Source of the DNA: an uncultured Pirellulales bacterium
GTDB lineage: Bacteria; Planctomycetota; Phycisphaerae; Sedimentisphaerales; Anaerobacaceae
Assembly (NCBI GenBank): GCA_964601355.1
Contig: CAZRNB010000001.1
Coordinates: 825 to 64,824, forward strand
Direction: 5' to 3'
DNA: 64,000 nucleotides
Both the position numbers and the translations under genes were made by a program. This document shows, piece by piece, positions 27,432-54,012 of the stretch. Numbering within the stretch: position 1 is the stretch's first letter; each line of letters opens with the position of its first letter. The notes under the pieces were generated by a model that saw nothing but the letters and a program-made list of their open reading frames with translations, was not told the origin of the DNA and ran no database searches.

Positions 27432-27514
27432 GAATTTGAATTAAGAATTGAGAATGTAGAATTTAGAATTAAACTTTTCCCTTTTCTCAATTCTCAATTC
27501 TAACTTCTAAATTC
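27432..27514. repeat. hairpin element, family A (AGAATTG/TAGAATT 7-mer arms)
   Basis: gaatttgaattaagaattgagaatgtagaatttagaatt-loop-tctcaattctcaattctaacttctaaattc followed by a T-run. 3' of ilvE. Related copies at 44293-44376 and 54013-54068. Confidence 0.75.
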
Positions 27515-27538
27515 TTTTTTTGCCTGATATTCAGATTT

Positions 27539-28432
27539 CTACGCAGTATGGCTTGCGCCACTGCAACCTGATTTTCTGCTGTGCGCATATTCAAAGAAGT
27601 TCTTTCTCATTAGCTGAGTAATACACCCGGGTTTACCGTCACCTATTACTCTGCCGTCTATTTCGACAACACCAATGACCTCGGCGGCGGTGCCGGTCAG
27701 GAATAATTCATCACAGATATATAGATCAACTCTTGTGAGATTCTTTTCAACCACCGCCAGCTTTTCTTTTTTAGCCAGCCGAATAACCACAGCTCGCGTT
27801 ATTCCTGCCAACGCCCCTGCTTCAACCGGTGGTGTATAAATCACACCATTTTTGACAATGAAGACATTGTCGCCCGTCGCTTCGGCAACATAGCCTTCGT
27901 GGTTATACATAATCGCTTCCGGCACATTGTTGTCCAGCGCCTCAATCTTGGCCAGAATGTTATTGAGATAGTTTAGGCTCTTGATCTGTGGCGGAATAGC
28001 AAGCGAATAGTTACGAACCGTCGTAGCGCTTATCACCTTCATCCCTGTTTCATAAAGCTCCCCCGGATAAAGCTGAATATTATCGGCGATGATAAACACT
28101 TTGCTGCTCTCACAAACGAAAGGATTCAGCCCCAACGTTCCTTCTCCTCGAGTAACCACCAGCCTGATGTAGCCGTCAATAACGCCGTTTGCTTCAACGG
28201 TTTTCTCGATAGCACTTGTAAGCAAGCTCTTTTCCATTGGGATTTCAAGCCGAATAACCTTAGCTGACTCGTAAAGCCGTTTTAAGTGAGCGTCAAGCTC
28301 AAAAATCCTGCGATTATAGACACGAATGCCTTCAAAAACGCCGTCGCCATAAAGCAGTCCATGATCAAAAACAGAAATTTTAGCATCCGCCTCATCAACA
28401 AGCTTATCATCAAGCCAAATCTTCAATGACAT
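27539..28432 (-). CDS. ilvE: branched-chain amino-acid aminotransferase (class IV)
   Basis: FDHGLLYGDGVFEGIRVYN, YIRLVVTRGEGTLGLNP, SLNYLNNILAKIEA and FLTGTAAEVIGVVEIDGR. Confidence 0.9.
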   Translation of the reverse strand: MSLKIWLDDKLVDEADAKISVFDHGLLYGDGVFEGIRVYNRRIFELDAHLKRLYESAKVIRLEIPMEKSLLTSAIEKTVEANGVIDGYIRLVVTRGEGTLGLNPFVCESSKVFIIADNIQLYPGELYETGMKVISATTVRNYSLAIPPQIKSLNYLNNILAKIEALDNNVPEAIMYNHEGYVAEATGDNVFIVKNGVIYTPPVEAGALAGITRAVVIRLAKKEKLAVVEKNLTRVDLYICDELFLTGTAAEVIGVVEIDGRVIGDGKPGCITQLMRKNFFEYAHSRKSGCSGASHTA

Positions 28433-28482
28433 AAAAAACCTCTACGAACTCAAAATTCCAAGCACTTTGGCATTTTAATTTT

Positions 28483-28566
28483 GTAGGGTGGGGTCATACC
28501 CCACCAATCGTTATCCTTCGTCATATAAATCAAAATGTTCGGTGGAGTAAAAGACCCCACCCTACC
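28483..28566. repeat. inverted partial copy plus 50-bp direct repeat copy 1 (28517-28566)
   Basis: gtagggtggggtcataccccacc (28483-28505) is an inverted relative of the repeat end. ttcgtcatataaatcaaaatgttcggtggAgtaaaagaccccaccctacc (28517-28566) recurs at 29200-29249 with one mismatch. Confidence 0.8.
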
Positions 28567-29179
28567 ATTCTCTTTCTCCCATCTTCCAAATAGGATAGTA
28601 ATACCAAATCGCAAGTTCGATTTGCCGCAATGCACAATCATGGAGTTCGTTATGATCCTGCTGCAGTTGCAGCAGTCTGCTACGGAAGTTAATGTAATCG
28701 CGTACTAAAATATCATTTCTTACACTGTCCTGTCTCATCCCGAGTACGACCAGCGTCCTAAAATCAACAATGCCAAACTGTATAGGATTCCAAGCAGTAA
28801 GTAGAGCGCTCGCCGTCGGGATCGCCACTCCGTCCAGTTGAGTTAACTCCCGTAATGCGTTACTAATATCATTGTCTTGTAGTACCTGTTCATCCAGATG
28901 GAATAAAGCCCTTTGCCAGCAATTGCTCACTTCGTCCTGCCTCATTTGACGCACCAAACGGGATCTCCTTTGGGACTTCCAGTGACAAATGTTTCTAAAT
29001 AAACCCAATGGAATAGAATTACGATTTGAGCGCCATTTAAGTGAATTTTGCAAATAGAACACCTTATCATCTTGTGGCAATACAGGAGCAAGATGGCATA
29101 CGAAATTCACGTATGTATAGGCATCTACTGGGCGGCTGCCGTATGAGTATTTCATACTTTTTTCCTTTGTTCTATCCAT
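28562..29179 (-). CDS. hypothetical protein, possible helix-hairpin-helix-like fold
   Basis: 205-aa ORF bracketed by the 50-bp direct repeats. The segment LDGVAIPTASALLTAWNPIQFGIVDFR resembles an HhH-type 'GvG..tAS.iL....P..f.i.D.r' motif (weak). MKYSY at 29155 has a better RBS than the first ATG. Confidence 0.5.
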   Translation of the reverse strand: MDRTKEKSMKYSYGSRPVDAYTYVNFVCHLAPVLPQDDKVFYLQNSLKWRSNRNSIPLGLFRNICHWKSQRRSRLVRQMRQDEVSNCWQRALFHLDEQVLQDNDISNALRELTQLDGVAIPTASALLTAWNPIQFGIVDFRTLVVLGMRQDSVRNDILVRDYINFRSRLLQLQQDHNELHDCALRQIELAIWYYYPIWKMGEREW

Positions 29180-29199
29180 AACAAAATCATCAAATCTTT

Positions 29200-29249
29200 T
29201 TCGTCATATAAATCAAAATGTTCGGTGGGGTAAAAGACCCCACCCTACC
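29200..29249. repeat. 50-bp direct repeat copy 2
   Basis: 49/50 identical to 28517-28566. Contains the hairpin ggtgggg-taaaaga-ccccacc. Confidence 0.8.
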
Positions 29250-29262
29250 TTAATTGATGAAT

Positions 29263-29308
29263 AGGGTTCGGGGGTCAGTAAAAACCAGACCTCTGAACCC
29301 TGATCCCT
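29263..29308. repeat. hairpin element, family C (GGGGTCA / TGACCCC type), short copy
   Basis: agggttcgggggtcagtaaaaaccagacctctgaaccctgatccct, directly 3' of lolD. Confidence 0.65.
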
Positions 29309-29311
29309 TAA

Positions 29312-30001
29312 TTAAGAACCAGCCGTCATCTTTCCATCTACCATTTTTATAATCCGTCCTGCTCTTTTTGCGACTCCTTCATTATGAGTTACCATTACAA
29401 TGGTTTGGCCGGCTTTATTTAGTTTTTCAAAGGTCTCTAAAATACCACTTCCTGTTGCCGAGTCAAGATTTCCCGTAGGTTCATCGGCTAAAAGCAGCTC
29501 AGGCTCATTCATCAGGGCCCTTCCGATAGCAACCCTTTGTCTTTCTCCGCCGGAGAGCTGGTATGGTTTATGTTCGGCTCTGTCCGTTAGACCAAGCTGA
29601 ACCAGCAGCTCTTTGGCTCGGCTTTTCGCCTGCTTTCGGCACGTGAGCCAGCCGACCACGCTTTTCGAGGCCATTGCCGGCAGATAAACGTTTTCCAATA
29701 CAGTTAATTCGTCCAATAAATGGTAGAACTGAAAAACAAATCCAATCATTTTATTACGAAACCTGTTTAATTCGCCGGAACTGTAGCTATTTAAATCCCT
29801 GCCTTCAAACTTAACTATTCCTTTATCGGGCCTGTCCAGAGCACCCAATATATGCAATAACGTGCTTTTACCACTTCCGGAAGCCCCGATTATCGCAGCA
29901 AATTCGCCCTTTTCAACAGACAAATCAACACCTTTGAGCACCTTAACTTCGGTTGCACCCATGCGATAAGATTTATATATTTCCTCGGCTCTTAACATCA
30001 A
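29312..30001 (-). CDS. lolD: ABC transporter ATP-binding protein, LolD/MacB-type
   Basis: Walker A GASGSGKST, signature LSGGERQRVAIGRAL, Walker B LLLADEPT. Adjacent to two FtsX-type permeases. Confidence 0.8.
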   Translation of the reverse strand: MMLRAEEIYKSYRMGATEVKVLKGVDLSVEKGEFAAIIGASGSGKSTLLHILGALDRPDKGIVKFEGRDLNSYSSGELNRFRNKMIGFVFQFYHLLDELTVLENVYLPAMASKSVVGWLTCRKQAKSRAKELLVQLGLTDRAEHKPYQLSGGERQRVAIGRALMNEPELLLADEPTGNLDSATGSGILETFEKLNKAGQTIVMVTHNEGVAKRAGRIIKMVDGKMTAGS

Positions 30002-30020
30002 TTGTCCTACATAAAATTGT

Positions 30021-30085
30021 GAGTAGGATTCGGGGGTCAGGGGTCGGGAGTCGGCAAAAACCTGACCCCTGATCCCTGATCCCTT
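30021..30085. repeat. hairpin element, family C, full copy
   Basis: gagtaggattcgggggtcaggggtcgggagtcgg-caaaaac-ctgacccctgatccctgatccc. Nearly identical to the copy inside lysS at 34347-34417. Confidence 0.85.
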
Positions 30086-30106
30086 AATTTTTATATTTGA
30101 TATTCT

Positions 30107-31528
30107 TTATAATTGGCTTACCTGCAAAGTCTCTATCGTATTCCGCCTTGCCGCCTGCCGGCTCGGTATAAATGCACCAATTAAACATACAGCAACCGCG
30201 GAGAAAATAATCAGTGCCAGAACATCAAACTCCACCTGATTCGGGATATCACCAATAGCATATATCGTCCTGTCCCAAAGTTGAAAACCAAAATGTTCGA
30301 AAAGCCACTGCTCAATCTGATTTATTTTCCGCAAAAATAACCAGCCGGTGAATAATCCTATTGCAGAGCCTATCAGGCCGACAGAAAAGGCAAATCCCAA
30401 AAAAAGCATAATAATATTGGTATTTGAGACACCGACGCTTTTTAGTATCCCAATATCTTTGCTTTTATGACTGATAATCATATAAAAGACAACTAAGACT
30501 ATAAAAACCGTCGTAATTCCCACGAGTGCAAATAATACGGTCATCATCGTCTGCTCTTTCTCCATGGCAGCGATGTACTCACGTCTGTACTCCTTCCAGC
30601 TTTGAACGGTTACCGTATCTAACAGGTACGCCTGCTCTTCGGCGGCTTTTCCCTGCTTAAATTTGTCCCAGAGCAAAGCGACTTTTTCGCAGCCGATGTG
30701 CAATCTGATATCGGGTTTGAACTTTATATGAATGGTGTTGACTCGTTTCAAAGGGCCATCCATACCACAAAGCCATTGGGCCTGCTCAAAAGGAATATAT
30801 ACGACAGAACCATCCACTCGGGCTAAACCGCTGTAAGAATAGTCACTATAGTAGAAATTTTGAGTGTTAATCAGCCCTAAGTCAGCTTTAGCCGGCGCAC
30901 CTTTTGCCGTCAGGGGAACACAGCTAACAGATACAGATGTTTCATCAAGACGGTCACTAAAAAAATAGTCTCCTCTCGGCCCGCGCTGCGGCGCCATAGC
31001 GATTCCCAGCCTGTTACCAACCTCGATACCCAGCACGCACCCAATGAGGTTCGGGTCGCCCTGCCCAAGGCGGGTCTGACCTCGTCCAGGCATTTGGCCT
31101 GGCCGGCCCGGCGGCTCAAATGCCTTCGAGAGATCGCCTCTGTGGTAATACAGCATCTCGCCGAAACCCGTGGTACTGCTGTGCCTGACCGGCTCGATAC
31201 CCATAATCTCCAGGCCGACCCCGCGCTCCGTCCAGCTCGGACAGACCAGCGCGTAACTTTTTATCACAGCAGATACACTATCAATAAAATCGGCCTGCTC
31301 CAATATCTTCATAAAATCTTCGTAGTATGTAAAACCAACCAATGTCTCAGTACCGACCACGCAATCCCCGGTAAAGCGGTGATTTTTCTGCTTAAAGTCA
31401 CGCACTAAGCCCGTCAGCACAGTCATTACCACTAAAACGATAAAAACGCAAAGTGCAACAGTAAGCACCACAAAATACGTTATATGGCGCTTCACCAAAT
31501 ATCTGCTTGCAAGAATAAGCTTATACAT
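30107..31528 (-). CDS. ABC transporter permease, FtsX/LolC-E family
   Basis: 473 aa. N-terminal TM, large periplasmic domain and three C-terminal TM helices (FtsX fold). KSKDIGILKSVG motif. Confidence 0.8.
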   Translation of the reverse strand: MYKLILASRYLVKRHITYFVVLTVALCVFIVLVVMTVLTGLVRDFKQKNHRFTGDCVVGTETLVGFTYYEDFMKILEQADFIDSVSAVIKSYALVCPSWTERGVGLEIMGIEPVRHSSTTGFGEMLYYHRGDLSKAFEPPGRPGQMPGRGQTRLGQGDPNLIGCVLGIEVGNRLGIAMAPQRGPRGDYFFSDRLDETSVSVSCVPLTAKGAPAKADLGLINTQNFYYSDYSYSGLARVDGSVVYIPFEQAQWLCGMDGPLKRVNTIHIKFKPDIRLHIGCEKVALLWDKFKQGKAAEEQAYLLDTVTVQSWKEYRREYIAAMEKEQTMMTVLFALVGITTVFIVLVVFYMIISHKSKDIGILKSVGVSNTNIIMLFLGFAFSVGLIGSAIGLFTGWLFLRKINQIEQWLFEHFGFQLWDRTIYAIGDIPNQVEFDVLALIIFSAVAVCLIGAFIPSRQAARRNTIETLQVSQL

Positions 31529-31541
31529 ATCTCAAAGTTTA

Positions 31542-31600
31542 GTTCATTGTTATTAGTTCATAGTTCATCGTCAATAAACAACGAACTATGAACAATGAAC
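31542..31600. repeat. hairpin element, family B (GTTCATN 7-mer arms)
   Basis: gttcattgttattagttcatagttcatcg-tcaataaaca-acgaactatgaacaatgaac. Related copies at 38344-38406 and 53882-53923. Confidence 0.75.
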
Positions 31601-31604
31601 CAAT

Positions 31605-32978
31605 CTACTCATATCGCAGGATCTCCACCGGCTTTGTCTCGGCTGCGACAATCGCAGGGATTAATGTTCCGATAGCAGCTGCTACGACGGCAAACAATAC
31701 GATAGGCAAAACCGATGACCAGTCAATATTATTCGGAATCCTGCTGAACATATAGACACTGCTTTTCCAAAGCTTCAGCCCGAAGATTATCCTAATCCAT
31801 TCCTCAAGCGTATTGATATTCTTTGTAATAATGTATGCCAAAACAGCTCCGAGACCTGAGCCGACGGCTCCTACAAAACCTCCAAAACCGAGAAACACAA
31901 GGGCTACTGAGCTGCTCGTCGTCCCGCAGCTTTTTACTATGGCGATGTCACGCTGCTTAAGCCTGACTATCATGTAGAATATACAGAATATAAGCACTAT
32001 TACACTGAAACTGACGACGCCAAAAATCAGCAATAAAACTCCCATTTGCTTTCGCAGCTCACCGGCATACTGACTCTGCATCTGTTTTGCCGTTTCAATG
32101 TCTGTATAGCCTATAAGATATGGATTTGCGTTAAGGTGCTGATTAACAAAATTCAGCCACGCGCCACGAATTTGGGCTATTGCAGCATCTGTCCTGGCAG
32201 CACTGGTGAGCTTAATTTGAATCTGGTTGGCAAGCGGCTCTTTTTCCGTCGGATATAAAACCTGCTGTAATTGTTCTATGGGAAGGTACACAAATCCTTT
32301 ATCAAGGTCATAGACGCCGGTCTGTACAATATCTACAATGGTTAATTTTAAGGCCTTTCTTTTAAACCTGATGCCGGCCTGACCACTTGATGGCGAATCT
32401 TCAGATCCTATTTTTGCACCTGTAGTGAGAACAACCTGCTGGCCAATCATGCTATCGACCACTCTGTAATCATATTCATCTGTCGTTTCATTAGGTTCGG
32501 TTATCACTGCGATCCCAACAAATCCACCGACATCGTTTGGCGAGTCCGCCACTTCAAAAGAAGGCTCCTCATCCGATTGTCCCTGTCTGCGCAAAAACTG
32601 TTTAAAGCCGGTTACCCTCGCACGTTTGGCAGGCTCAATCCCCCAAATGTGCACTGCACGCACATTGCCTTTGCCTAAATGCAGAAGTCCCTGTGACGAT
32701 AGTGTAGCCGTGGCCGCATCAACAGCAGAAATCTTCTCGAGCTGCTCAATAAATAGTGGATACTTTGCAAATGTTACCGGTGCCGAAAGAACAACGTCGC
32801 CTATTGTCTGAACCGCCGCCTGTTCAAGCATATTGATAAAACCGGTGAACAGGCTGGCCACAACAATCAACAGCGACGTTGACAACGCAACCGCAGCGAT
32901 GCTCAACAGTACAATTTTTTTCTTACAGAGGTATCGAAACCACAAAAATAATTTCAACATCTCGTTTCGGAGGTTCAA
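31605..32978 (-). CDS. ABC transporter permease, FtsX/LolC-E family
   Basis: 457 aa with the same architecture as 30107-31528. KQRDIAIVKSCG motif. Confidence 0.8.
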   Translation of the reverse strand: MNLRNEMLKLFLWFRYLCKKKIVLLSIAAVALSTSLLIVVASLFTGFINMLEQAAVQTIGDVVLSAPVTFAKYPLFIEQLEKISAVDAATATLSSQGLLHLGKGNVRAVHIWGIEPAKRARVTGFKQFLRRQGQSDEEPSFEVADSPNDVGGFVGIAVITEPNETTDEYDYRVVDSMIGQQVVLTTGAKIGSEDSPSSGQAGIRFKRKALKLTIVDIVQTGVYDLDKGFVYLPIEQLQQVLYPTEKEPLANQIQIKLTSAARTDAAIAQIRGAWLNFVNQHLNANPYLIGYTDIETAKQMQSQYAGELRKQMGVLLLIFGVVSFSVIVLIFCIFYMIVRLKQRDIAIVKSCGTTSSSVALVFLGFGGFVGAVGSGLGAVLAYIITKNINTLEEWIRIIFGLKLWKSSVYMFSRIPNNIDWSSVLPIVLFAVVAAAIGTLIPAIVAAETKPVEILRYE

Positions 32979-34564
32979 TCTTTAAAAGGTTTCAGAAGTG
33001 GAAACAATACGACATCACGAATACTCAAAGCGCCGGTCAAGACCATAACCAATCTGTCAATTCCGATACCCAATCCACCTGCCGGCGGCATACCATACTT
33101 CAGCGCCGTTATATAGTCCTGGTCCATTTTGGTTAGTGATTCTTCCTGGCCGCGAAGCTGCGTAAGAAAATTCTCATATTGTTCCGCAGGGTCATTCAAC
33201 TCAGTATATGCATTCGCCAGCTCCATCTGGGCGACGAACAATTCAAATCGCTCGGCAAATCTTCCGTCATCCTTTTTACGTCTGGCTAAAGGACACAATA
33301 CGGCCGGATAATCAATCACAAACGTCGGGGCAATGAGATGCTCCTCAACGGTGGTCTCAAATACCTCATTGGTAACTACCGCGTCATCCAAAACATCCTC
33401 TTCTATACCGAGCGATTTTGCTTTTATTCTGATAGCTTGTATATCATCAATATTACAGCCGCTGTATTGCTTTAGAAGGTCCGCGTATCGGGCTCGCCGC
33501 CAGGGCCGCGTGAAATCCACAGCCATTTCGCCGAACATCACCCCATTAGAAATTTCTCCCTGAGAGGTAATCGCCTTCTTTTCGTTATTTCCAACGGGGT
33601 GAATCTGTTTGGCCGCGCTAAGTTTTTCCGCGCATGCGGAGATAGCATCCTCAGCCAATTCCATCATCACATTGTAATCAGCGTACGCTTGATACGCTTC
33701 GAGCATCGTAAATTCCGGATTGTGGTATCTGCTGATTCCTTCGTTGCGGAAGCTGCGATTTATCTCGAAGACCTTTTCCATCCCGCCCACCAGCAGTCTC
33801 TTGAGAAACAGCTCCGGCGAAATCCGCAGGAATAAATCCATATCAAGACTATTATGGTGCGTTATGAAAGGCTTTGCCGCGGCTCCGCCGGCTATGGTCT
33901 GCATCATCGGCGTCTCGACTTCCAGAAAACCCTTCGATACAAGGAGCTGGCGAATCGCAGCAATGACGTCGCTGCGTTTTTTAAACCGCTCCAGCACCTC
34001 AGGATTAGCCCACAGGTCAACGTATCTCTGCCGGTAGCGCAGGTCAATATCCGCCAGACCGTGAAACTTTTCCGGCGGCGGATACAAACACTTGCTCAAA
34101 AGTGTAAGGCGGTCAACCCAAATGGTTATCTCTCCCGTTTGGGTCCTGCCCAATTGACCGGCAGCACCGATTATATCACCAAGCTCAAGCAGCTTGGCAA
34201 GCTGCCAATCGTTTGCATTGGTTCCAATCAGACCCTTGCTCAAGCCGACCTGGATGGTTCCGCTGCTGTCACGCAGAGTAATAAATATCAGCTTGCCAAT
34301 ATCCCTCAGCAGCACAATCCTGCCTGCACAATTGGCACGCCCCGATGAGTAGGATTCGGGGGTCAGGGGTCGGGGGTCGGCAAAAACCTGACCCCTGAAC
34401 CCTGATCCCTGACCCCTTGCCGGGTCTTTGAATCTGCGCTTTACATCTTCAGCCGGCTCCGTATCCTCATATCTGCCGCCGTACGGCTCAATACCAAGCT
34501 GCTTAATTTGGTTCAGCTTTTCCTGTCTTTGTCGTTCAAATTTATCTTGTTTTGTATCTTGCAT
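32975..34564 (-). CDS. lysS: lysine--tRNA ligase (class II)
   Basis: RYRQRYVDL, EVETPMMQ..GGAAAKPF, FRNEGIS..HNPEFTMLE and GGLGIGIDRLVM. Contains a repeat insertion at 34347-34417. Confidence 0.95.
   Translation of the reverse strand: MQDTKQDKFERQRQEKLNQIKQLGIEPYGGRYEDTEPAEDVKRRFKDPARGQGSGFRGQVFADPRPLTPESYSSGRANCAGRIVLLRDIGKLIFITLRDSSGTIQVGLSKGLIGTNANDWQLAKLLELGDIIGAAGQLGRTQTGEITIWVDRLTLLSKCLYPPPEKFHGLADIDLRYRQRYVDLWANPEVLERFKKRSDVIAAIRQLLVSKGFLEVETPMMQTIAGGAAAKPFITHHNSLDMDLFLRISPELFLKRLLVGGMEKVFEINRSFRNEGISRYHNPEFTMLEAYQAYADYNVMMELAEDAISACAEKLSAAKQIHPVGNNEKKAITSQGEISNGVMFGEMAVDFTRPWRRARYADLLKQYSGCNIDDIQAIRIKAKSLGIEEDVLDDAVVTNEVFETTVEEHLIAPTFVIDYPAVLCPLARRKKDDGRFAERFELFVAQMELANAYTELNDPAEQYENFLTQLRGQEESLTKMDQDYITALKYGMPPAGGLGIGIDRLVMVLTGALSIRDVVLFPLLKPFKD
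34347..34417. repeat. family C hairpin element inserted in-frame in lysS
   Basis: gagtaggattcgggggtcaggggtcgggggtcggcaaaaacctgacccctgaaccctgatccctgacccct encodes ARGQGSGFRGQVFADPRPLTPESYS, N-terminal to the anticodon-binding OB fold. Confidence 0.85.
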
Positions 34565-37283
34565 CTTGTAATAGGAGACAGGAGACAGGAGACAGAAGAC
34601 AGGAGTTAATATTCTGTATTCTGTATTCTGTATTCTGTATTCTTTCCTGAGCCAGTTTAGTTTTAATAACCAGGACGGCTACCGCCAGCTCCGGGTCCGC
34701 CGCTAAGGTCTCTTCGATAGTATGTCTTTTCGGCATCTCTCTGCCGGCGCCACGGTCGGCTTGAGATCCGTTAGAAGATTCTTTTCTGCCGGTTAGAGTA
34801 TTCTGATCCTCCCTTCGGGTCTGAGCCTCAGGGTCGAAGACTAACACGGTTTTTCTAACGGGTTGAACAAGCACGTCATTATCGCGCTGAATATCGAGCA
34901 TTTTCTTGAGATCATCACTTGTCAGCACTATTTCAACGTTTGGCCCGACACCCCAATCTTTGCCGCCCTGTTTTTCGACCTCATCTCGGCTTTTAACTCT
35001 TTGACCGGAAGGTAAATGATAGTATGCCATCGTATATTTTAGCTGTGCTCCGCCGCCTGGATATTCGGTTATTCCCTGTACGCTGCCTTTGCCATGCGTT
35101 CTTTCGCCGACCAGGACCGCCCGGTTGTGCATCTGGTCTGCTAAAGCTCCCGCTACAATTTCAGAAGCGCTGGCCGAGTCGGAATTAATCAATATGACCA
35201 GCGGATAATCCGGATGCGTCCCCTTGGCGTGCGCCGCTTTATAACTCGGCGTCCTGCCGAAGCCGGGTTGTGTTCTGACTATCAATCCCTCTTTTATGAA
35301 ATGGTCGGCCACATCCACGGCACTTTCCAGCAGACCCCCGGAATTGAATCGCAGGTCCAGGATAAGCCCTTTCAATCCTTCCTGCTCTAATTGACTTAAT
35401 ACCTTATCAAGCTCCACGGGAGCATCTGCGGAAAAGCTGGTAAGACGAACATAGCCGACTTTGTTCTGCTGGTCGATCATATACAGCCAGTCGCCTGTTC
35501 CAGTCCTTTGCCAGCCCCGAACCGATGAAACAGTTATCCTGGCTCTGGTAATGGTAATATCCTGAGTTTTTTCTTCGCCCGGCCGCTTAATCGTCAGCGT
35601 CACCTTCGTGCCTTTGGGGCCGGTGATTTTATGAACAGCGCATATAAGACTCATATCTTGCGCATCAAGGCCGTCCACCGCCGTTATCACGTCACCGGCG
35701 TCAAGACCGGCTTTATATGCCGGTGTATCCGGCAATAAGCTGGACACCGTCAACAGCCCTTTGGGTTTGGAAATCTCTATCCCAATGCCCGTGAACTCAT
35801 TGGTCATTATCTTCTCGAAATCCTGCACTTGCCTGGGCCATACTATAACCGTATAAGGATCAAGCGAAGATAATGCCGCTTCTGCAAACTGGGAAATCAG
35901 CACCTGCCGAGGCAGCTGAATCGTTACGGCGTTCAGTGACATTATTCTCTCAAAAATTTCTATGAACTTATCTTTAGTGAGCCCGGCAGACAAAGTAAGG
36001 CCCTGTATATGACCTCCGGTCGAGCTCGATGCGGCTTCAGCCTCGGACAATTCGTTAAGGCGGACAAGAGCAGCTGAGAAGGCGGCAAGCTCATTGGCAT
36101 CCACCCCCCGCAGCACTGTGGAGGATTGATTGGGCGATGAGCCTTCCACTGTGGGATTACTATCTTCACCCTCCGACATGGCCAAAGGTAACTGCCGACC
36201 GGCTTGAAAATATGTATTTACAATCTCGGCCAACAGCTCACAACGTTTGATAGCATCGGCAGTCATCCGGCTATAATCGATAGTATTGACGTAATGCGTA
36301 TCGAGCGCCTCTATCGTCCGAATGAACATCTCTTTTTTAATCCCCTGGAAACGTTCTTCGCGTGTTTCACAGGGACTGTCCTGAAGAGAAGCAATAATGC
36401 CGGCTTTATCCAAAAGCTGATCTGCATAATCTGAATAAGCCTCGTTGTTTGGATCAATTGCCTGCAGCCAAAAGTAGCAGGTTGTGTATGCTTCAAGATA
36501 TTTACCCTGAAGCTCAAGACCGGATGTCCTATCTATGGCCTTTTGAAAAACCTGTTTAACATAAGAATTAGATAATAGCTCCGCTTTCTGCGCATCATCT
36601 GCCAGCTCACCTGCCGCGGTGATAACAGAAAGCATTTTAATTATATCATTTACGTCGTTTACGTCGTTTGCGGAGGATTTAGAGGCCGAATCGTTGACGT
36701 GGATTCCTGCTAAGGGGGGTTCGTCGCTGCTGTGCATCTTGGCCTGAAGTTTCTCCAGCTCAGTTAACTGCTGCTGGTAAGCTGATTGCCGAGCTGATCG
36801 ACGCTGTCGATCTAAAGTCTGATACGCATCAATAATCTCCAACAACTGACGAATAGTTCCACTAAATCCACCTGCATTGCCCTGGTCGATTTGTTTCAGC
36901 AGCTCGCCGGCAAAATCGAATTTACCCTTGTAAATCAGTTCGCACGCTGCGCGGATAACGCTTAACGGCGATTCCGACACTTCATTAGCGTTTGGTTCCG
37001 CCGGGAGGGGCTTTGGAACTTCAGCAGGCGTTAGTTTATCCTGAAGTATGCTGTCAGCTGATACGTCAGCAGCAGGTGTTTCCAGGGCAATTAGCGGAGT
37101 TGAAAATCTATGCCCAAGAGATAGGATACCACGTGGAGTATCCCACAGTGGCCAGCAGAAGAACACCAAAAGAAAAGAGCATAGAAGCAGCAGGAACAAA
37201 GTGACTTTTACACTTTTAGCTCGATTGTCCTGCCAAAATAATTTTTTTAATCTTAACAACTGCAATGAACCGCTCCTTACCAA
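34542..37283 (-). CDS. S41-family C-terminal processing peptidase with PDZ domain and a long N-terminal extension
   Basis: PDZ (GIGIEISK...PAYKAGLDAGDVITAVDG) and S41 core (LILDLRFNSGGLL, INSDSASASEIVAGAL, GERTHGKGSVQ). TTG start, so uncertain. The C-terminal 30 aa are read through the family F repeat. Confidence 0.85.
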   Translation of the reverse strand: MVRSGSLQLLRLKKLFWQDNRAKSVKVTLFLLLLCSFLLVFFCWPLWDTPRGILSLGHRFSTPLIALETPAADVSADSILQDKLTPAEVPKPLPAEPNANEVSESPLSVIRAACELIYKGKFDFAGELLKQIDQGNAGGFSGTIRQLLEIIDAYQTLDRQRRSARQSAYQQQLTELEKLQAKMHSSDEPPLAGIHVNDSASKSSANDVNDVNDIIKMLSVITAAGELADDAQKAELLSNSYVKQVFQKAIDRTSGLELQGKYLEAYTTCYFWLQAIDPNNEAYSDYADQLLDKAGIIASLQDSPCETREERFQGIKKEMFIRTIEALDTHYVNTIDYSRMTADAIKRCELLAEIVNTYFQAGRQLPLAMSEGEDSNPTVEGSSPNQSSTVLRGVDANELAAFSAALVRLNELSEAEAASSSTGGHIQGLTLSAGLTKDKFIEIFERIMSLNAVTIQLPRQVLISQFAEAALSSLDPYTVIVWPRQVQDFEKIMTNEFTGIGIEISKPKGLLTVSSLLPDTPAYKAGLDAGDVITAVDGLDAQDMSLICAVHKITGPKGTKVTLTIKRPGEEKTQDITITRARITVSSVRGWQRTGTGDWLYMIDQQNKVGYVRLTSFSADAPVELDKVLSQLEQEGLKGLILDLRFNSGGLLESAVDVADHFIKEGLIVRTQPGFGRTPSYKAAHAKGTHPDYPLVILINSDSASASEIVAGALADQMHNRAVLVGERTHGKGSVQGITEYPGGGAQLKYTMAYYHLPSGQRVKSRDEVEKQGGKDWGVGPNVEIVLTSDDLKKMLDIQRDNDVLVQPVRKTVLVFDPEAQTRREDQNTLTGRKESSNGSQADRGAGREMPKRHTIEETLAADPELAVAVLVIKTKLAQERIQNTEYRIQNINSCLLSPVSCLLLQDARYKTR
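34574..34642. repeat. hairpin element, family F (GGAGACA / TTCTGTA 7-mer arms)
   Basis: ggagacaggagacaggagacagaagacaggag-ttaat-attctgtattctgtattctgtattctgtattc. Arms pair with G-T wobbles. Related long copy at 62724-62826. Confidence 0.8.
37124..37151. repeat. short copy of the GGATACC...GTATCC element inside the S41 peptidase ORF
   Basis: ggataccacgtggagtatcccacagtgg encodes WDTPRGIL in the N-terminal membrane-proximal region. Confidence 0.6.
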
Positions 37284-37290
37284 GGTATCT

Positions 37291-37363
37291 GGTAATTGGT
37301 GAGTGGTTAATTGGTTAAATGGTTAATTGGTTAATTAACCACTCACCGCTCACCATTTAACCA
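37291..37363. repeat. hairpin element, family E (GGTTAAT 7-8-mer arms)
   Basis: ggtaattggtgagtggttaattggttaaatggttaattggttaatt|aaccactcaccgctcaccatttaacc, 3' of fba. Confidence 0.75.
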
Positions 37364-37365
37364 GT

Positions 37366-38310: not shown

Positions 38311-38343
38311 AATTGTCTCCTTAAATATGGACGTCATTTTGAA

Positions 38344-38406
38344 CGTTCATTGTTATGAGTTCATAGTTCATCGATGAACAATGAACAGCGGACAATGAAC
38401 AACGAA
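38344..38406. repeat. hairpin element, family B
   Basis: gttcattgttatgagttcatagttcatcg|atgaacaatgaacagcggacaatgaacaacgaac, between the LptD-like gene and fba. Confidence 0.75.
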
Positions 38407-38411
38407 CATAG

Positions 38412-41438: not shown

Positions 41439-41573
41439 TCACGCAATACGCATCACGAATTATAGCTGCTAATTCGACCAACGCCAGAAAAAATCATTAC
41501 TATAATATCGACAGCTTGATTTAAATATAATTATCATTTAAAAATGATTTCCTGAATAGACAAGAGGATTGCT

Positions 41574-41855
41574 ATGGCGAAAAATGAGTATTCAGACTAT
41601 CAGAAAAAAGTTATATCAGGCTATTACGACAACCTTAATGCGATAATGCTCCAGAAATTAAGCGAGCTTGTAACAGAATTGTACTTAGCCGATTCGCAGG
41701 CCAGGAAAGACCGGCTCTGGCAAAGGGCCAACAAGGCCATGTTAAATCTAAAAATCCCGCCCGCAATCATCAATCATATTATGCAGAAAAAAGACGTGGA
41801 AGTTTTAGCCAAAAACCTCCAGGACTGGCTTGCCACAGCAAAAAAGAAAAAATAA
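41574..41855 (+). CDS. hypothetical small helical protein
   Basis: 93-aa ORF with a clear ATG and a Lys-rich tail. No family recognised. Confidence 0.55.
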   Translation: MAKNEYSDYQKKVISGYYDNLNAIMLQKLSELVTELYLADSQARKDRLWQRANKAMLNLKIPPAIINHIMQKKDVEVLAKNLQDWLATAKKKK

Positions 41856-41862
41856 AAAGAAC

Positions 41863-41889
41863 TATCCGTCGCCGTGCTGGCGACGGATA
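41863..41889. terminator. perfect 11-bp stem-loop after the 93-aa ORF
   Basis: tatccgtcgcc-gtgct-ggcgacggata. A T-run is present only on the minus-strand side (gttcttttta). Confidence 0.5.
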
Positions 41890-42019
41890 AACTTAGCCTT
41901 TGCTTTAGTATAGTTGCGTTGATATACTATCACCATGCCTTCCCAAGTGGGATGGAATTTTCGATTTTTACTATTAACAAAATACTGATTACTAACGACT
42001 AATTCCGGTGGAGGCAAAT

Positions 42020-43156
42020 ATGTCCGAAGGTTATCCTGAAACAGCGAAGGTCTATCCAACTGAAAAACTGGGTCAGCTCAGCATCCTCGATATGCTTGTC
42101 TATTTTGAGCAGCACGGAGCGCTGCGAGTCTCAGACCTGCACCTCAAAGTCGGCGCACCGCCCACGTACCGCATTGACGGCGACCTGGTAAAACTCAAAG
42201 GCCCATCCGTAACTGCGGATATGGCAGCACGCCTTATTTACCCCCTTATAAGCGATGCAAATTTGAAAAAGTACCAAAGCAAAAACAGCGTCGATTGCTC
42301 CTATCGGCTTCGCTCGCTGCAATTCAGAATAAATATCTTCAAAGAAAATGACGGGATAGCCGCAGCCATCCGGGCATTATCGCTGGACGTTCCAAAAATC
42401 GAAGACATCGGCTTCCCAAACAATGTCTGGGAGGATATTCTCGACCTCAAGCAAGGTCTGGTCCTCTTAACCGGCATCACCGGCGCCGGCAAATCTACAA
42501 CAATCGCATCATTTATCGGCAGAATCAGCGAAAAACACGCCTGTCGGATGATAACCGTTGAGGACCCGATAGAATACATCTTCCAGCAGAAATATTCGAT
42601 TATCTCCCAAAGGGAGGTTGGAAGGGACGTCAAATCCTTCATTGAGGGACTGAAAGAAATGATGCGGGAGGACCCGGACGTGATATTCGTCGGCGAAATG
42701 CGAGACCCCGAGACCATAGCCATGACGCTTATGGCCGCCGAGACCGGCCATTTAGTCTTTTCCACGCTGCACACCAGAGATGCGACCGGCACAGTGTCAC
42801 GAATCCTGGACTATTTCCCGTCCGGCAGGCAGCAGGAAGTGCGAAATCAGCTCTCGCTCGGACTTGCCTACATCATCAGTCAAAAGCTCATACCGAAAAA
42901 AGACGGCACGGGCAGGATCGCCGCGATAGAAATCCTCAATAACAATTACGCCTGCGCCAACCTGATTCGCATCGGCAAGATAGAACAATTATATTCACAA
43001 TTGCAGACAAAGACGCGAGAAAAACCCGATGAAAAAATGATAACGATGGAAAAGCATCTGGCGATGCTGGTAAAGCAGGACAAAATCGACCTGCTCGAAG
43101 CCAAAAAGTGGGCCAACGATCTTAAAGCCTTCACCGACTGTATGCAGCGAGAATAA
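42020..43156 (+). CDS. pilT: type IV pilus retraction ATPase PilT
   Basis: Walker A GITGAGKST, Asp box ITVEDPIE, Walker B-like FVGEMRD, His box TGHLVFSTLHT. The ATG at 42020 follows GGAGG. Confidence 0.9.
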   Translation: MSEGYPETAKVYPTEKLGQLSILDMLVYFEQHGALRVSDLHLKVGAPPTYRIDGDLVKLKGPSVTADMAARLIYPLISDANLKKYQSKNSVDCSYRLRSLQFRINIFKENDGIAAAIRALSLDVPKIEDIGFPNNVWEDILDLKQGLVLLTGITGAGKSTTIASFIGRISEKHACRMITVEDPIEYIFQQKYSIISQREVGRDVKSFIEGLKEMMREDPDVIFVGEMRDPETIAMTLMAAETGHLVFSTLHTRDATGTVSRILDYFPSGRQQEVRNQLSLGLAYIISQKLIPKKDGTGRIAAIEILNNNYACANLIRIGKIEQLYSQLQTKTREKPDEKMITMEKHLAMLVKQDKIDLLEAKKWANDLKAFTDCMQRE

Positions 43157-43176
43157 ATACGTTGTGCGTCTTATAA

Positions 43177-43263
43177 GTGCCTAAAGTGAGCTAAAGTGTC
43201 TAAAGTGAACTAAAGTTGTTGTTCTTAACTTTAGGCACTTTTAACTTTAGTCACTTTAGTCAC
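43177..43263. repeat. hairpin element, family D (CTAAAGTG 9-10-mer arms)
   Basis: gtgcctaaagtgagctaaagtgtctaaagtgaactaaagt-loop-aactttaggcacttttaactttagtcactttagtcac, 3' of pilT. Second copy at 60681-60789. Confidence 0.8.
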
Positions 43264-43310
43264 CGGCCCTTCGTATTAACAATGAACAATAAACTTTTTG
43301 CGGAGCGGGA

Positions 43311-43343
43311 CGAGTATCGAGTATCCAGCATCGAGTATCGAGT
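43311..43343. repeat. tandem 7-mers (GAGTATC/CAGCATC) abutting the start codon at 43344, preceded by a core remnant GCGGAG
   Basis: gcggagcgggacgagtatcgagtatccagcatcgagtatcgagt-ATG. Confidence 0.6.
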
Positions 43344-44237
43344 ATGACCATAGAATTTAACTGTCCCTATTGCGAGGCTCTGATTGCCTTCGACAGCAAA
43401 CACTGCGGCAAACGCGCACGATGCTTAACCTGCGGACAGCTCTTCATAATACCTTCTAAAGACTTTGAAAAAGCGGAGAAAATTAAGCCTAAAATTGAAA
43501 GAGCTGAACCACTGCCCGGCTTTTACCGAGCCGTATTTGTCGGAAGCTGGAAGTTATTCATCAATCCAGAAAACGCAACCTCAATTGTGTTCGTTTTCGT
43601 AGCGATATGCTTTAAATTTCTTTTCGGCAGAGGGATATGCTGTATGAATCATATCTCATTTATAGTTGTCTGGGGCTGGCTGCTGGGATTCTACCTGAAT
43701 ATTATCTATGAGACGGCATACGAGATAGATAAGCTGCCAAAAATTTACCTCGGTACAAGCATTACATTTCTGTGGTACATTATTAAGCCGCTTTTTATTT
43801 TCTTATGGACTATGGCGTTCTTGGAGCTTCCATTTATTATCACACTGAGCATCTTACAAAATAAGAATTTGACTGTCGAAAATATGTGGCGGTTAGGAAT
43901 CGGACTACAATTGCTGCTTCAAACTCTATTTATTCTTGGCTTATTCCTTTTTCCAATGGCGATATTAACTATTGCGGTCGGTAGAGACATCACCTTATTA
44001 AGGCCTGATTACGTTTTCAAGCCGGTTTTTAGAAAACCTGGGCCGTATTCAGTATCCGTGCTACTACTTGCCACTGCGGCTATTATTGAGATGCAAACGA
44101 GGTCATTTACCGGTATAAATCTTACTGTAGATGTGGTCTATTTAATGTTGGACCTTTCAGCCCAGGTGATTGCCATCATTTCTATGCGTGCGATCGGCCT
44201 ATTCTATCGCCACTATAGCTGTCATTTTGCATGGTAA
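43344..44237 (+). CDS. membrane protein with an N-terminal zinc ribbon
   Basis: CPYC...17 aa...CLTC zinc-ribbon pattern, then about 6 hydrophobic helices (DUF4013-like architecture). Confidence 0.6.
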   Translation: MTIEFNCPYCEALIAFDSKHCGKRARCLTCGQLFIIPSKDFEKAEKIKPKIERAEPLPGFYRAVFVGSWKLFINPENATSIVFVFVAICFKFLFGRGICCMNHISFIVVWGWLLGFYLNIIYETAYEIDKLPKIYLGTSITFLWYIIKPLFIFLWTMAFLELPFIITLSILQNKNLTVENMWRLGIGLQLLLQTLFILGLFLFPMAILTIAVGRDITLLRPDYVFKPVFRKPGPYSVSVLLLATAAIIEMQTRSFTGINLTVDVVYLMLDLSAQVIAIISMRAIGLFYRHYSCHFAW

Positions 44238-44292
44238 AATACGGATGATACCAGGCAAATTAGACTTGACGCAAGTAATTGAGAAACATAGT

Positions 44293-44376
44293 ATTTAGAG
44301 TAAGAGAATTTTGAATTTAGAATGTAGAATCCAGAAAATTCAATTCTCAATTCATCATTCTTAATTCTTAATTCTA
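44293..44376. repeat. hairpin element, family A
   Basis: atttagagtaagagaattttgaatttagaatgtagaat-loop-attcaattctcaattcatcattcttaattcttaattct. Confidence 0.75.
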
Positions 44377-53923: not shown

Positions 53924-54012
53924 TACCATTGCCATTAGGCTTTGACTTTAGCAATATAAACAAATATATACGTAGCCCTGTGCTATAGTTTCTAAAGCCT
54001 GATCTGTTCAAT

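Follow-up and report, generated by a model that had tools for sequence, protein, structure and literature searches.

Palindromic heptanucleotide arrays in a planctomycete locus most likely spread by copying errors rather than as gene-end signals

The locus raises the question of what generates and maintains a set of hairpins whose arms consist of tandem 7-nt units and whose sequences fall into unrelated families. In the preliminary description of this 64-kb stretch of DNA (hereafter referred to as the window, the source of all data from this genome), they were taken to punctuate nearly every gene end, with a possible function as terminator, mRNA stabiliser or processing site. Hairpins with tandem-unit arms were present at all 14 positions that had been listed. 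The proposal of at least six sequence-unrelated families with one architecture holds, with the number of families exceeding six: additional ones comprise ATCSAGY (43311, 57011 and 62158) as well as TCGTCGC, ACGAGTG and TCGCTCG in murE (Table 1).

Non-overlapping period-7 tandem arrays of at least three copies were counted with TRF, yielding 23 arrays in 64 kb, whereas dinucleotide-preserving shuffles gave 0.05 on average. The enrichment was limited to period 7, with six perfect runs of at least three copies and none in the shuffles; perfect runs of this length at periods of 5, 6, 8 and 10–13 were absent from the window. A periodicity-blind inverted-repeat scan, using a threshold derived from a Markov null, returned 25 loci in the window, about 15 of which had arms with a period of 7, or of 8–10 in families D and E. 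The arrays in the window usually contained 3.4–6.6 copies, and the majority adjoined a complementary array, giving rise to hairpins of 60–120 nt, whereas those at 43311, 55807 and 56358 were unpaired. Folding of the hairpins as sense-strand RNA gave z-scores of -2.2 to -9.8 (A1: -26.4 kcal/mol, z -4.7); a fold of -46 kcal/mol (z -6.3) was obtained for D2. Array densities per 10 kb amounted to 3.6 in the window and 0.45 in the 18 closest LysRS loci. The unit sequences were highly diverse, with most heptamers in 683 kb of related contigs found only once or twice. The heptamer hairpins are real and non-random, and most arrays are organised as imperfect palindromes.

Table 1. Arrays and hairpins in the window (strand given where assigned)
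Element	Position	Strand	Units	Location and remarks
Hairpin A1	27432..27516		GAATTNA / TTCTAAA; 5.7 + 4.6 copies (TRF)	ilvE stop to ispB start; also in inverted-repeat scan
Hairpin C1	29249..29316		1-2 GGGGTCR	Short family-C copy; overlaps lolD stop codon; adjoined by a REP-like GTAG element
Hairpin C2	30021..30090		GGGGTCR / CCTGAYC	Fills perm1|lolD spacer
Hairpin B1	31536..31606		TAGTTCA / ATGAACA	perm2 stop to perm1 start; z -9.8
Hairpin C3	34347..34417		Family C	In frame within lysS; codes for 23-aa insertion
Hairpin F1	34573..34643		AGGAGAC x4.7 / TATTCTG x4.9	S41 peptidase / lysS junction; S41 peptidase ORF runs through it, end 34542, beyond lysS start 34564
Hairpin E	37290..37355		TGGTTAA type, period 7-8	fba stop to S41 start
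Hairpin B2	38345..38408		GTTCATW / ATGAACA	lptD-like stop to fba start
Hairpin D1	43175..43263		CTAAAGTGNN, period 9-10	3' of pilT
Unpaired array	43311..43345	+	CGAGTAT x5	Abuts zinc-ribbon gene start codon
Hairpin A2	44293..44376		AGAATTT / AATTCTN	Zinc-ribbon gene to FlgI-like gene
B3	53882..53950		Weak family-B copy	Divergent intergenic region
A3	54013..54066		Family-A copy	Divergent intergenic region also holding B3
murE hot spot 4 array	55807..55838	-	TCGTCGC x4.6 on +	In frame; peptide LRATSDERRATK
murE hot spot 3 arrays	56146..56203	-	TCGCTCG x4.1 + CCCCGAC x4.0	In frame; adjacent, non-complementary
murE hot spot 2 array	56358..56389	-	Sense TCGTCAC x4.6	In frame; peptide SSLVTRHSSLV
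Imperfect hairpin M, murE hot spot 1	57011..57098	-		In frame; small central stem-loop between two arrays
Hairpin D2	60675..60790		CTAAAGTG family, period 9-10 and 19	3' of S55-like gene
Hairpin G	62158..62231		GCTGGAT x5.4 / CGAGAAT x4.6	Within S55-like ORF
Hairpin F2	62720..62825		CAGAAGA x6.1 / TTCTGTC x6.6	5' end of S55-like ORF, divergent region

Between 27.4 and 46.1 kb, hairpins (A1, C1, C2, B1, F1, E, B2, D1 and A2) were found at 9 of the 13 gene junctions, the four others being a gene overlap, a divergent promoter region, a junction with a REP-like pair and flgI|smc. In five cases, the next start codon followed 6–8 nt past the hairpin end, with stop and start codons at the base of the stem. 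Four elements had been misplaced, since C3 (34347) is situated inside the lysS coding sequence and F2 (62724), A3 (54013) and B3 (53882) lie in divergent, 5'-side regions. The phrase "nearly every gene end" was also too broad, as the first 27 kb had no array at any of its 25 junctions and the remainder had one at 12 of 24, and as 10 of 26 arrays were located within coding sequence.

The junction counts between 27.4 and 46.1 kb, the lack of a hairpin in the 569-nt divergent lptD|pilT region, the significant sense-strand folding of all hairpins and the closeness of five of them to a start codon would be in line with selected RNA elements at gene 3' ends. Such elements could terminate transcription without a U-tract, block 3'-5' exonucleases or be processed by RNases so as to set the relative expression of operon genes, as has been proposed for REP/BIME in E. 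coli and for cyanobacterial STRR, whose hairpins have been proposed to mediate transcript stabilisation or translational coupling (PMC2670836). We nevertheless consider this explanation unlikely. T-runs (U-tracts) were absent after the hairpins, a terminator scan called none of them, and, of 14 cases, 9 folded better on the antisense strand and 4 on the sense strand. Shifting the register by 7 nt did not worsen arm pairing, and the arms differed systematically at 1–2 positions per unit, which argues against compensatory maintenance. Units were 79–82% alike within an arm and 71% alike across arms as complements; in F1, the arms were 93% and 100% uniform internally but only 75% alike as complements. 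Because the shifted registers pair equally well and both a sense-strand preference and U-tracts are missing, the hairpins do not reflect selection for a particular RNA helix. Moreover, lysS and murE carry elements of the same kind within their coding sequence, F2, A3 and B3 occupy divergent 5' regions, and the junctions of the first 27 kb are devoid of such elements. Together with the tight gene spacing in relatives described below, these findings do not support a dedicated role as terminator or mRNA stabiliser.

The comparison of orthologous intergenic regions, suggested as a check at the outset, revealed other repeat families, hairpins or tightly spaced or overlapping genes at several junctions. 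The gene order lptD-fba-S41-lysS-perm2-perm1-lolD-ilvE-ispB is kept in relatives, against which the elements stand out as lineage-specific insertions. Of six relatives, four have perm1 and lolD spaced by -4 to +12 nt, with an overlap of 4 nt in L002, L005 and L007, compared to 105 nt, filled by C2, in the window. Similarly, four of eight relatives show a perm2|perm1 spacing of -1 to +9 nt, compared to 76 nt, filled by B1, in the window; single B1-like arrays take the place of the hairpin in L007 and L008. A family-D hairpin is present at lysS|perm2 in L001, where the genes of the window overlap, and L009 has an unrelated repeat hairpin at fba|S41, followed by a T-run. The 3' end of fba speaks for an RNA-level function: ordinary GC-rich hairpins were found there in five relatives (L002, L004, L007, L010 and L013) and the repeat-arm hairpin with T-run in L009, so that the hairpin looks conserved while its sequence is replaced. 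Since some hairpin was present in all relatives examined, it may be functionally required at this position.

The 23-aa LysRS insertion encoded by C3 was absent from all 13 homologues aligned. MurE homologues vary in length between 481 and 599 aa and contain four variable hot spots with 7-aa periodic peptides, and period-7 arrays were detected at the same murE hot spots in the DNA of L201 and L202. At hot spot 2, the orthologous units read (TCGTCAC)4.6 in the window, (TCGTCAA)4.9 in L201 and TCAAAAC/TCATAAC in L202; one identical base change in every unit between the window and L201 amounts to concerted evolution. Read on the sense strand, the CCCCGAC array of hot spot 3 has the family-C unit. 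At hot spot 1, L201 possesses the central stem-loop and one array, to which the window adds a second, partly complementary array; it is the sense-strand upstream array of hairpin M (+ strand 57065-57098) that is missing from L201.

Over 65 positions, loop and non-repeat flank included, C2 and C3 show two differences (~97% identity). Therefore, whole elements are copied to new places, also in frame into essential genes. The pairs B1/B2 and A1/A3 have long identical stretches in common, and family D is present in L001, with its unit occurring in at least 120 metagenome contigs. The initial argument against a mobile sequence family needs to be revised in this respect, as the families, judged by C2/C3 and family D, behave as dispersed elements. 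Each family could accordingly be a non-autonomous MITE- or REP-like element moved in trans by a transposase that is encoded elsewhere in the genome and binds or cleaves at the reiterated 7-nt units. Family C begins with GTAG, like GTAG-tagged REPs, and the window also contains genuine GTAG REP-like hairpins, which lie in frame within murE in L202 as well; both the presence of REPs within genes and RAYT-mediated mobility are documented (PMC3733652). However, target-site duplications were absent at C1, C2 and C3, neither a transposase among the window ORFs scanned against Pfam nor a RAYT was seen, and the GTAG tag is confined to family C. The extreme diversity of units in the related contigs would demand many cognate enzymes, many family-D arrays are devoid of an inverted partner (136 single arrays versus 20 pairs), and orthologous arrays stay put and evolve in concert instead of being replaced by insertion. 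Mobilisation by a transposase is, on balance, improbable.

The missing transcript-strand preference would also fit an action at the DNA level, with the arrays being bound at their reiterated units by a nucleoid or other DNA-binding protein or, in another form, influencing supercoiling or replication through non-B structures (G-quadruplexes, cruciforms). Family C (GGGGTCR) could form a G-quadruplex, similar to GGGAATC in Xanthomonas and GGGGAYT in Nostoc (PMC4692102), and a preprint reports an influence of heptamer repeats on the activity of NtcA- and LexA-dependent promoters in Nostoc (bioRxiv 10.1101/2022.06.06.494920). Most families, however, are AT-rich or mixed, making a G-quadruplex impossible, and the many unrelated units would need many proteins. 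In addition, the helical repeat is not 7 bp, and a required site is at odds with the in-frame arrays in murE and lysS and with the hairpin-free junctions in several relatives. We regard a DNA-level role, in whichever form, as highly improbable.

The reading that we favour, with slightly better than even confidence, is that the elements are heptanucleotide arrays of the LSSR/STRR type that have bloomed in one Sedimentisphaerales-like lineage, being for the most part selfish or neutral arrays that arise by slippage and are mirrored through template switching; a spread by copying errors rather than gene-end signalling is most likely. Replication slippage with a 7-nt step would make an array and keep turning it over. 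Where an array lies beside a small stem-loop, a template switch (quasi-palindrome correction) would then add its reverse complement on the other side, resulting in array-loop-array hairpins, whose arms would diverge as slippage within an arm outpaces correction between arms. Complete elements would now and then be copied elsewhere and persist at the least harmful sites, namely spacers holding gene 3' ends and protein surface loops. On polycistronic mRNA, the long, mismatch-studded hairpins might loop out the insert and hold stop and start codons close; effects on mRNA decay, processing or termination would be a by-product and not the reason for their existence. A sequence-independent generating process, in line with the structure-driven one proposed initially, fits the diverse units, the concerted change in orthologous arrays and the separate homogenisation of the arms, each being more uniform internally than complementary to its partner. 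Hairpins are known to be created and extended by template switching (PMC8794818). For the window, this step is suggested by array pairs in which one genome has an arm that a relative lacks (murE hot spot 1; perm2|perm1 in L007 and L008), a difference that could equally stem from the loss of an arm or from its gain. The favoured explanation gives no reason for the 7-nt step and does not account for the array-free first 27 kb. Array pairing also occurs in other phyla (L043, L047, L049 and L059). The units CTAAAGTG, CAGAAGA and GGGGTCR recur among genomes whose LysRS is just 60–75% identical, which is not predicted by pure neutral turnover and hints at a trans-acting factor or ongoing transfer.

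Although the 7-nt periodicity had been described as foreign to any known element class, the repeat kind is already known from cyanobacteria and Xanthomonas, as STRR and GGGAATC repeats, respectively, and from heptamer LSSRs. Cyanobacterial STRR (short tandemly repeated repetitive sequences) were reportedly described by Mazel et al. in 1990. They are 7-bp repeats forming hairpins between genes, such as the co-transcribed hupS-hupL, with proposed roles in transcript stability or translational coupling (PMC2670836), and have also been noted inside a functional gene, that of RNase P RNA (Vioque 1997, as cited in PMC4046671). The window resembles them in its 7-bp tandem units, several families, intergenic location and hairpin formation. 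STRR, in contrast, belong to heterocystous cyanobacteria and have other unit sequences, whereas the host of the window is a Sedimentisphaerales-like planctomycete (Phycisphaerae), in which most arrays form complementary pairs and some have demonstrably invaded essential protein-coding genes in frame. The GGGAATC repeats of Xanthomonas form heptamer arrays that favour ~4 units, lie for the most part near stop codons and between ORFs of the same orientation, and vary in length between related species; among 186 repeat sites, 70 cases are convergent inverted pairs capable of forming stem-loops (Rehm et al. 2015, PMC4692102). They constitute a single G-rich family, read as a G-quadruplex former, while the window contains at least eight families, mostly not G-rich, so that a G-quadruplex cannot be the common denominator. 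TAACTGA heptamers of marine Beggiatoaceae and some cyanobacteria form 2–6 direct intergenic copies and sometimes fall in ORFs, giving 7-aa periodic peptides (LSVISYQ), but comprise a single unit, with 1 indirect repeat versus 169 direct sets, located just upstream of start codons (PMC4679880).

The analogy to REP/BIME drawn at the outset is apt. REP, BIME and REPIN elements of E. coli and Pseudomonas are short imperfect palindromes in dispersed families, mostly in 3'-end spacers within operons and occasionally in genes, and are regarded as selfish with possible effects on mRNA; REPs, however, are 20–40 bp long, GTAG- or CGTC-tagged, not internally tandem and RAYT-mobilised (PMC3733652, PMC3116915). 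The stems in the window differ in being tandem 7-mers, and true GTAG REP-like hairpins co-occur there as a separate element. Rickettsia palindromic elements (RPE), which are mentioned in PMC3733652 and were reportedly described by Ogata et al. in 2000, are said to lie in frame at permissive sites of essential protein-coding genes, where the inserted palindromic repeats add peptide segments while function is kept; they reportedly measure 100–150 bp, have no tandem heptamers and are restricted to Rickettsia. According to the survey of long simple-sequence repeats (LSSRs; 5–11 nt) by Mrazek 2007, as summarised in PMC4679880, heptanucleotides are the commonest type in prokaryotes, are phylogenetically scattered and mostly non-coding, and were ascribed to polymerase slippage, with a ~7-nt footprint being proposed. 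As far as that summary conveys, the survey treats direct arrays, to which the window adds palindromic pairing and the concerted evolution of orthologous coding arrays.

The architecture set out in the preliminary description, a short loop between one arm of 3–6 tandem 7-mers (9–10-mers in family D) and a second arm roughly complementary to it, was recovered at every named hairpin (A1 to F2, the letter giving the unit family: A, AGAATTG type; B, GTTCATN; C, GGGGTCR; D, period 9–10; E, GGTTAAT; F, GGAGACA/TTCTGTA). On the 64 kb, TRF called 23 non-overlapping period-7 arrays of at least three copies, compared with a mean of 0.05 per shuffle in 20 dinucleotide-preserving shuffles. When perfect runs were counted for periods 3–15, enrichment was seen at period 7 alone (six runs of at least three perfect copies vs 0). 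Inverted repeats were located irrespective of periodicity by local self-alignment with Watson-Crick or wobble scoring, and 25 loci exceeded the 99.9th percentile of a Markov null, about 15 of which had complementary arms of period 7 or, in families D and E, of period 8–10. An earlier gapless hairpin scan limited to Watson-Crick pairs was too strict (five found) and GC content distorted the outcome of a sliding minimum-free-energy scan; both were replaced. The sense-strand folds of the hairpins ranged from -18 to -46 kcal/mol (z -2.2 to -9.8). Per 10 kb, the window holds 3.6 arrays and the 18 closest LysRS loci 0.45; the excess is a lineage-specific bloom. The best LysRS relatives were MAGs of the Planctomycetota/Phycisphaerae/Sedimentisphaerales with identities of 73% and below, and the closest named MurE relative was a Sedimentisphaerales MAG (77%); on these grounds a cyanobacterial source was rejected.

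Genes were identified with Pfam. The proposed siting at gene ends held for 9 of the 13 junctions between 27.4 and 46.1 kb, which carry a hairpin, and failed for C3, F2, A3 and B3: C3 lies within the lysS coding sequence, and the other three occupy divergent 5'-side regions rather than gene 3' ends. Although intergenic DNA makes up 12% of the window, it contains 16 of the 26 arrays, in agreement with the non-coding location of long simple-sequence repeats (LSSRs); the coding sequences of lysS, murE, the S55-like gene and clpX hold the other 10, in frame. Six arrays in murE, a hairpin in the S55-like ORF and three arrays without a partner had been overlooked. Period-7 arrays were absent from all 25 gene junctions at positions 1–27384, 13 of which measure at least 80 nt, and present at 12 of 24 junctions thereafter (27385–64000). 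GC content and skew displayed no shift matching the array-free first 27 kb, and a change in composition was rejected as its cause.

Positions of hairpins, arrays and neighbouring features (window numbering unless another locus is given)
Feature	Locus	Coordinates (strand)	Position
Hairpin A1	window		ilvE–ispB junction
Hairpin C1	window		lolD–hyp205 (205-aa ORF) junction
Hairpin C2	window		perm1–lolD junction
Hairpin B1	window		junction of the permease genes perm2 and perm1
Hairpin F1	window		S41–lysS junction
Hairpin E	window		fba–S41 junction
Hairpin B2	window		lptD-like–fba junction
Hairpin D1	window		pilT–zinc-ribbon junction
Hairpin A2	window		zinc-ribbon–flgI-like junction
Arrays without partner	window	43311; 55807; 56358	
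REP-like hairpins	window	28483-28495 (+); 28553-28565 (-); 29236-29248 (-)	
hyp205 ORF	window	28562-29179	between lolD and ilvE
Direct repeat	window	28516-28565; 29199-29248	hyp205 flanks
S41 peptidase ORF	window	34542-34649 (end region)	through F1
Longest S55-like ORF	window	62701-62862 (start region)	start within F2 or upstream
FlgI-HEAT protein	window	44432-46036	
Terminator-like site	window	41862-41890 (-)	divergent lptD–pilT region
murF array	L201	15248-15277	in frame
GTAG REP	L202	10001-11677 (region)	murE hot spot 3
Paired hairpins	L043 (Ratteibacteria)	5978-6149; 16149-16231	near lysS
Paired hairpin	L047 (Thermodesulfovibrionia)	8129-8200	near lysS
Paired hairpins	L049 (Vicinamibacterales, Acidobacteriota)	3052-3122; 7651-7747; 12807-12904	near lysS
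Paired hairpin	L059 (Desulfuromonadales)	7120-7193	near lysS
Paired hairpin	L032 (Planctomycetia)	11442-11563	

An intrinsic terminator is a short-looped, GC-rich stem of 5–20 bp with a U-tract behind it on the transcribed strand. The view that a role as terminator or stabiliser accounts for the elements found no support, as they lack a U-tract, show no preference for the sense strand and pair independently of register. A terminator scan of the window called 19 sites, none at the hairpins, and shuffled sequences averaged 20.3, so there was no enrichment; among the hairpins, a loose T5 run was present near A1 only. The combination of stem and U-tract was thus not found, nor was an orthologously conserved position at the end of a transcription unit, the hairpins being located inside a conserved co-directional cluster. 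Folding was more favourable on the antisense strand in 9 of 14 cases and on the sense strand in 4. Selection at the RNA level, as judged from the asymmetry between G:U and C:A, was discarded because no strand was consistently favoured; the excess of G:T over C:A mismatches followed the element, not the direction of transcription. Position-specific compensatory pairing was ruled out as well, since registers 7 or 14 nt off paired equally well: on shifting by 7-nt steps, the Watson-Crick fraction was 0.86, 0.86, 0.83, 0.77 and 0.76 for the arm of A1 and 0.74, 0.74, 0.73 and 0.73 for that of F1. It follows that a variant unit in one arm has no mirror image in the other. Units resembled each other more within arms (0.79, 0.82) than across arms as complements (0.71), and the arms are homogenised separately, most clearly in F1 (0.93 and 1.00 within arms, 0.75 between), whose two near-perfect arrays differ in consensus. 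Rfam gave no match anywhere in the window. The evidence speaks against a dedicated RNA role of the hairpins, which is not supported.

The sole canonical-looking intrinsic terminator between 27 and 46.5 kb is situated upstream of the lptD-like start. Its 12-bp stem, in which 7 pairs are GC, precedes TTCTTTTTAT, and the site could serve as an attenuator or mark where an unannotated transcript stops. The flgI-like gene encodes a 534-aa protein with the odd combination of a FlgI (flagellar P-ring) domain and HEAT repeats, adjoining pilT and smc with no other flagellar genes nearby.

The gene order lptD-fba-S41-lysS-perm2-perm1-lolD-ilvE-ispB was retained in eight related loci (L002, L003 and L005–L010), which allowed individual junctions to be compared. 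The perm1–lolD spacer measures 105 nt in the window and is filled by C2, compared with a 4-nt overlap of the genes in L002, L005 and L007; likewise, the perm2–perm1 spacer, which is -1 to +9 nt in L002, L005, L006 and L010, measures 76 nt in the window and is filled by B1. The closest relative, L001, carries a family-D hairpin (CTAAAGTG) at the lysS–perm2 junction, where the genes overlap in the window, and a repeat hairpin of a different kind at perm2–perm1. An unrelated (GGAAGTAA)n/(CCTTAC..)n hairpin was present at the fba–S41 junction of L009, and single arrays with units resembling family B at perm2–perm1 in L007 and L008, so that single arms are present or absent. The suggested comparison of orthologous spacers thus confirmed that families substitute for one another, with empty, single-array and paired states coexisting in the clade. 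Given these states, the hairpin elements are non-conserved features of the junctions, with the caveat that the fba 3' end bears some hairpin, mostly an ordinary GC-rich one, in every relative examined.

The elements are, at least partly, dispersed copies. C2, in a spacer, and C3, in lysS, differ at 2 of 65 positions, and the loop GGCAAAAACC and the non-repeat flank TGAGTAGGATTC both fall within their common stretch, indicating copying of whole elements; C1 is a shorter copy, and the three are unequal in unit number. Long identical stretches are also shared by B1 and B2 and by A1 and A3. A metagenome scan placed the family-D unit in at least 120 contigs, in which the arrays listed comprised 136 single ones, 20 with the unit followed by its complement and 0 in the opposite arrangement, together with another 72 period-7 arrays whose units vary widely; an exact search of metagenomes with the family-C core returned no match. 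MITEs possess terminal inverted repeats and a flanking target-site duplication. The ends of the three copies C1, C2 and C3 lack a direct duplication and have AT-rich palindromic flanks (TTAATT) that could be either target or stem, and no transposase was detected among the window ORFs scanned against Pfam (64 kb of genome).

Within lysS, C3 coincides exactly with a 23-residue insertion in LysRS (GSGFRGQVFADPRPLTPESYSSG) that is absent from all 13 homologues compared. Alignment of MurE to solved structures revealed extra residues at all four array places, and the protein varies from 481 to 599 aa among 120 close homologues. An alignment of 20 MurE sequences contained four variable hot spots with peptides of 7-aa period (SSLVTRH/SSIVNRQ/NSKLKTQ, RATSDER and RRQKTED), the last of which results from reading family F in each of the three frames, and DNA of two JGI contigs carried period-7 arrays at the hot spots of the window's murE. 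Hot spot 2 reads (TCGTCAC)x4.6 in the window, (TCGTCAA)x4.9 in L201 and (TCAAAAC/TCATAAC)x4.6 in L202; since the flanks of the window and L201 are alignable and a single substitution is repeated in every unit, the orthologous array has undergone concerted evolution. Hot spot 1 of L201 contains one array and a small central stem-loop; the window has an additional, partly complementary array on the other side of the stem-loop. Three 7-nt units equal 21 nt, or 7 codons, so changes by three units keep the reading frame. Arrays are tolerated in both spacers and predicted protein loops.

The S41 peptidase ORF runs through F1, gaining 36 extra codons and ending 22 nt past the lysS start, and the start of the longest S55-like ORF lies in F2 or upstream of it, so that the N-terminus contains RRQKTEDRRQ, again family F in three frames. 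Either repeat insertion has reshaped these protein termini or the true start and stop differ from those of the longest ORF. In L201, murF contains an in-frame (AATTACC)x4.3 array (peptide NYQLPVTNYQ), and hot spot 3 of murE an extra 21-nt mini-hairpin (AGCCCCCGAC-AAG-TCGGGGCT) that the window lacks.

Three true GTAG REP-like hairpins, separate from the heptamer elements, occur around hyp205, an ORF without Pfam or NCBIfam match that separates two genes which are neighbours in every syntenic relative. A direct repeat of ~48 nt brackets the ORF, each copy ending in a GTAG-tagged hairpin (GGTGGGGT-AAAAG-ACCCCACC-CTAC), and the region resembles a gene cassette, or a small mobile element, that has been inserted. 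An assignment of hyp205 as a RAYT-like (REP-associated) transposase was rejected, given these database results and the lack of an HUH motif on reading of the sequence. Hot spot 3 of the L202 murE harbours the GTAG REP of the window (GTAGGGTGGGC...GCCCACC) in frame plus an inverted second copy, which adds the peptide ..SRVGFSPPSPSKENGGAS..; proteins P0011, P0040 and P0047 show the insertion too, and the REP is also present in L083, L089, L133 and L137. REPs, and not just heptamer arrays, therefore invade coding sequence in this clade.

Slippage in 7-nt steps, an idea credited to Mrazek 2007 in a passage of PMC4679880, may make the arrays and keep turning them over, and such turnover is reflected in the murE arrays, the unit numbers of C1–C3 and the likeness of units within arms. 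During replication, a template switch at a small stem-loop, a type of event that has been reviewed and documented (PMC8794818, PMC7202029), could write the reverse complement of an array on the other side, after which the two arms would diverge. Palindromic inserts are perhaps better tolerated within operons because an RNA hairpin would loop the insert out and hold the stop codon close to the start codon; in five hairpins, 6–8 nt separate the end from the next start codon. We consider it rather unlikely that a sequence-independent generator, combining fixed 7-nt slippage of the replisome with template switching at stem-loops, operates in many phyla and is hot in this lineage. If it did, it would ceaselessly supply spacers with new hairpins and essential proteins with new loops of 7-aa period, and the recurrence of units would suggest that an unrecognised factor, acting in trans, reads heptamer arrays or propagates them; the units CTAAAGTG, CAGAAGA and GGGGTCR recur across genomes whose housekeeping proteins are just 60–75% identical.

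With its conserved cluster in three junction states and its murE arrays, the locus is an unusually clean natural experiment, and such comparisons, through comparative genomics and mutation accumulation, can separate slippage, template switching and transposition. In practice, annotation of such genomes should not assume that a gene-end hairpin is a terminator, and repeat invasion can be the source of length differences in essential proteins, MurE among them.

The heptamer hairpins are a real feature and belong to a known but poorly understood kind. To our knowledge, the 7-nt preference and inverted pairing of LSSRs have been noted since 1990 and 2007 and never explained. Strict STRRs (short tandemly repeated repetitive sequences) are found in heterocystous cyanobacteria, with the units CCCCAGT, TTGGTCA and CAACAGT (STRR1-3). 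The window arrays, made of 7-nt head-to-tail units in at least three copies beyond chance, are of the broader LSSR/STRR type and differ from strict STRRs in their units and in the Planctomycetota/Sedimentisphaerales affiliation of the LysRS and MurE relatives. REP/BIME elements are 20–40-bp palindromes tagged terminally with the tetranucleotide GTAG or CGTC; they are linked to a RAYT (TnpA_REP) transposase and reach high copy numbers across a genome. The window hairpins measure 60–120 nt and start with GTAG in family C only. The in-frame palindromic insertions in LysRS (C3) and at the MurE hot spots, with orthologues that lack them, behave like Rickettsia RPEs, a likeness that does not imply homology. 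Paired heptamer hairpins were detected near lysS in four loci of other phyla and, by eye, in a Planctomycetia locus (table); among loci L019–L080, adjacent period-7 array pairs were inverted in 5 of 5 cases and direct in 0. A purine-rich arm in first place was dismissed as a general rule: families A, C, D, E and F obey it, family B and several loci of other phyla do not. Heptanucleotides are the commonest units of prokaryotic LSSRs according to Mrazek 2007, as quoted in a passage of PMC4679880, and 7-bp STRRs form hairpins between hupS and hupL in cyanobacteria (PMC2670836). GGGAATC repeats of Xanthomonas, preferably of four units, lie between co-oriented ORFs and near stop codons; a study of 186 such repeat sites counted 70 cases of convergent inverted pairs and stated that detailed literature on heptameric repeats was absent (PMC4692102). 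What the present locus adds to these systems is the occurrence in Planctomycetota, the crowding of many families into a short stretch, the coexistence of empty, single and paired states at junctions that are orthologous, and the concerted evolution of in-frame arrays within essential genes.
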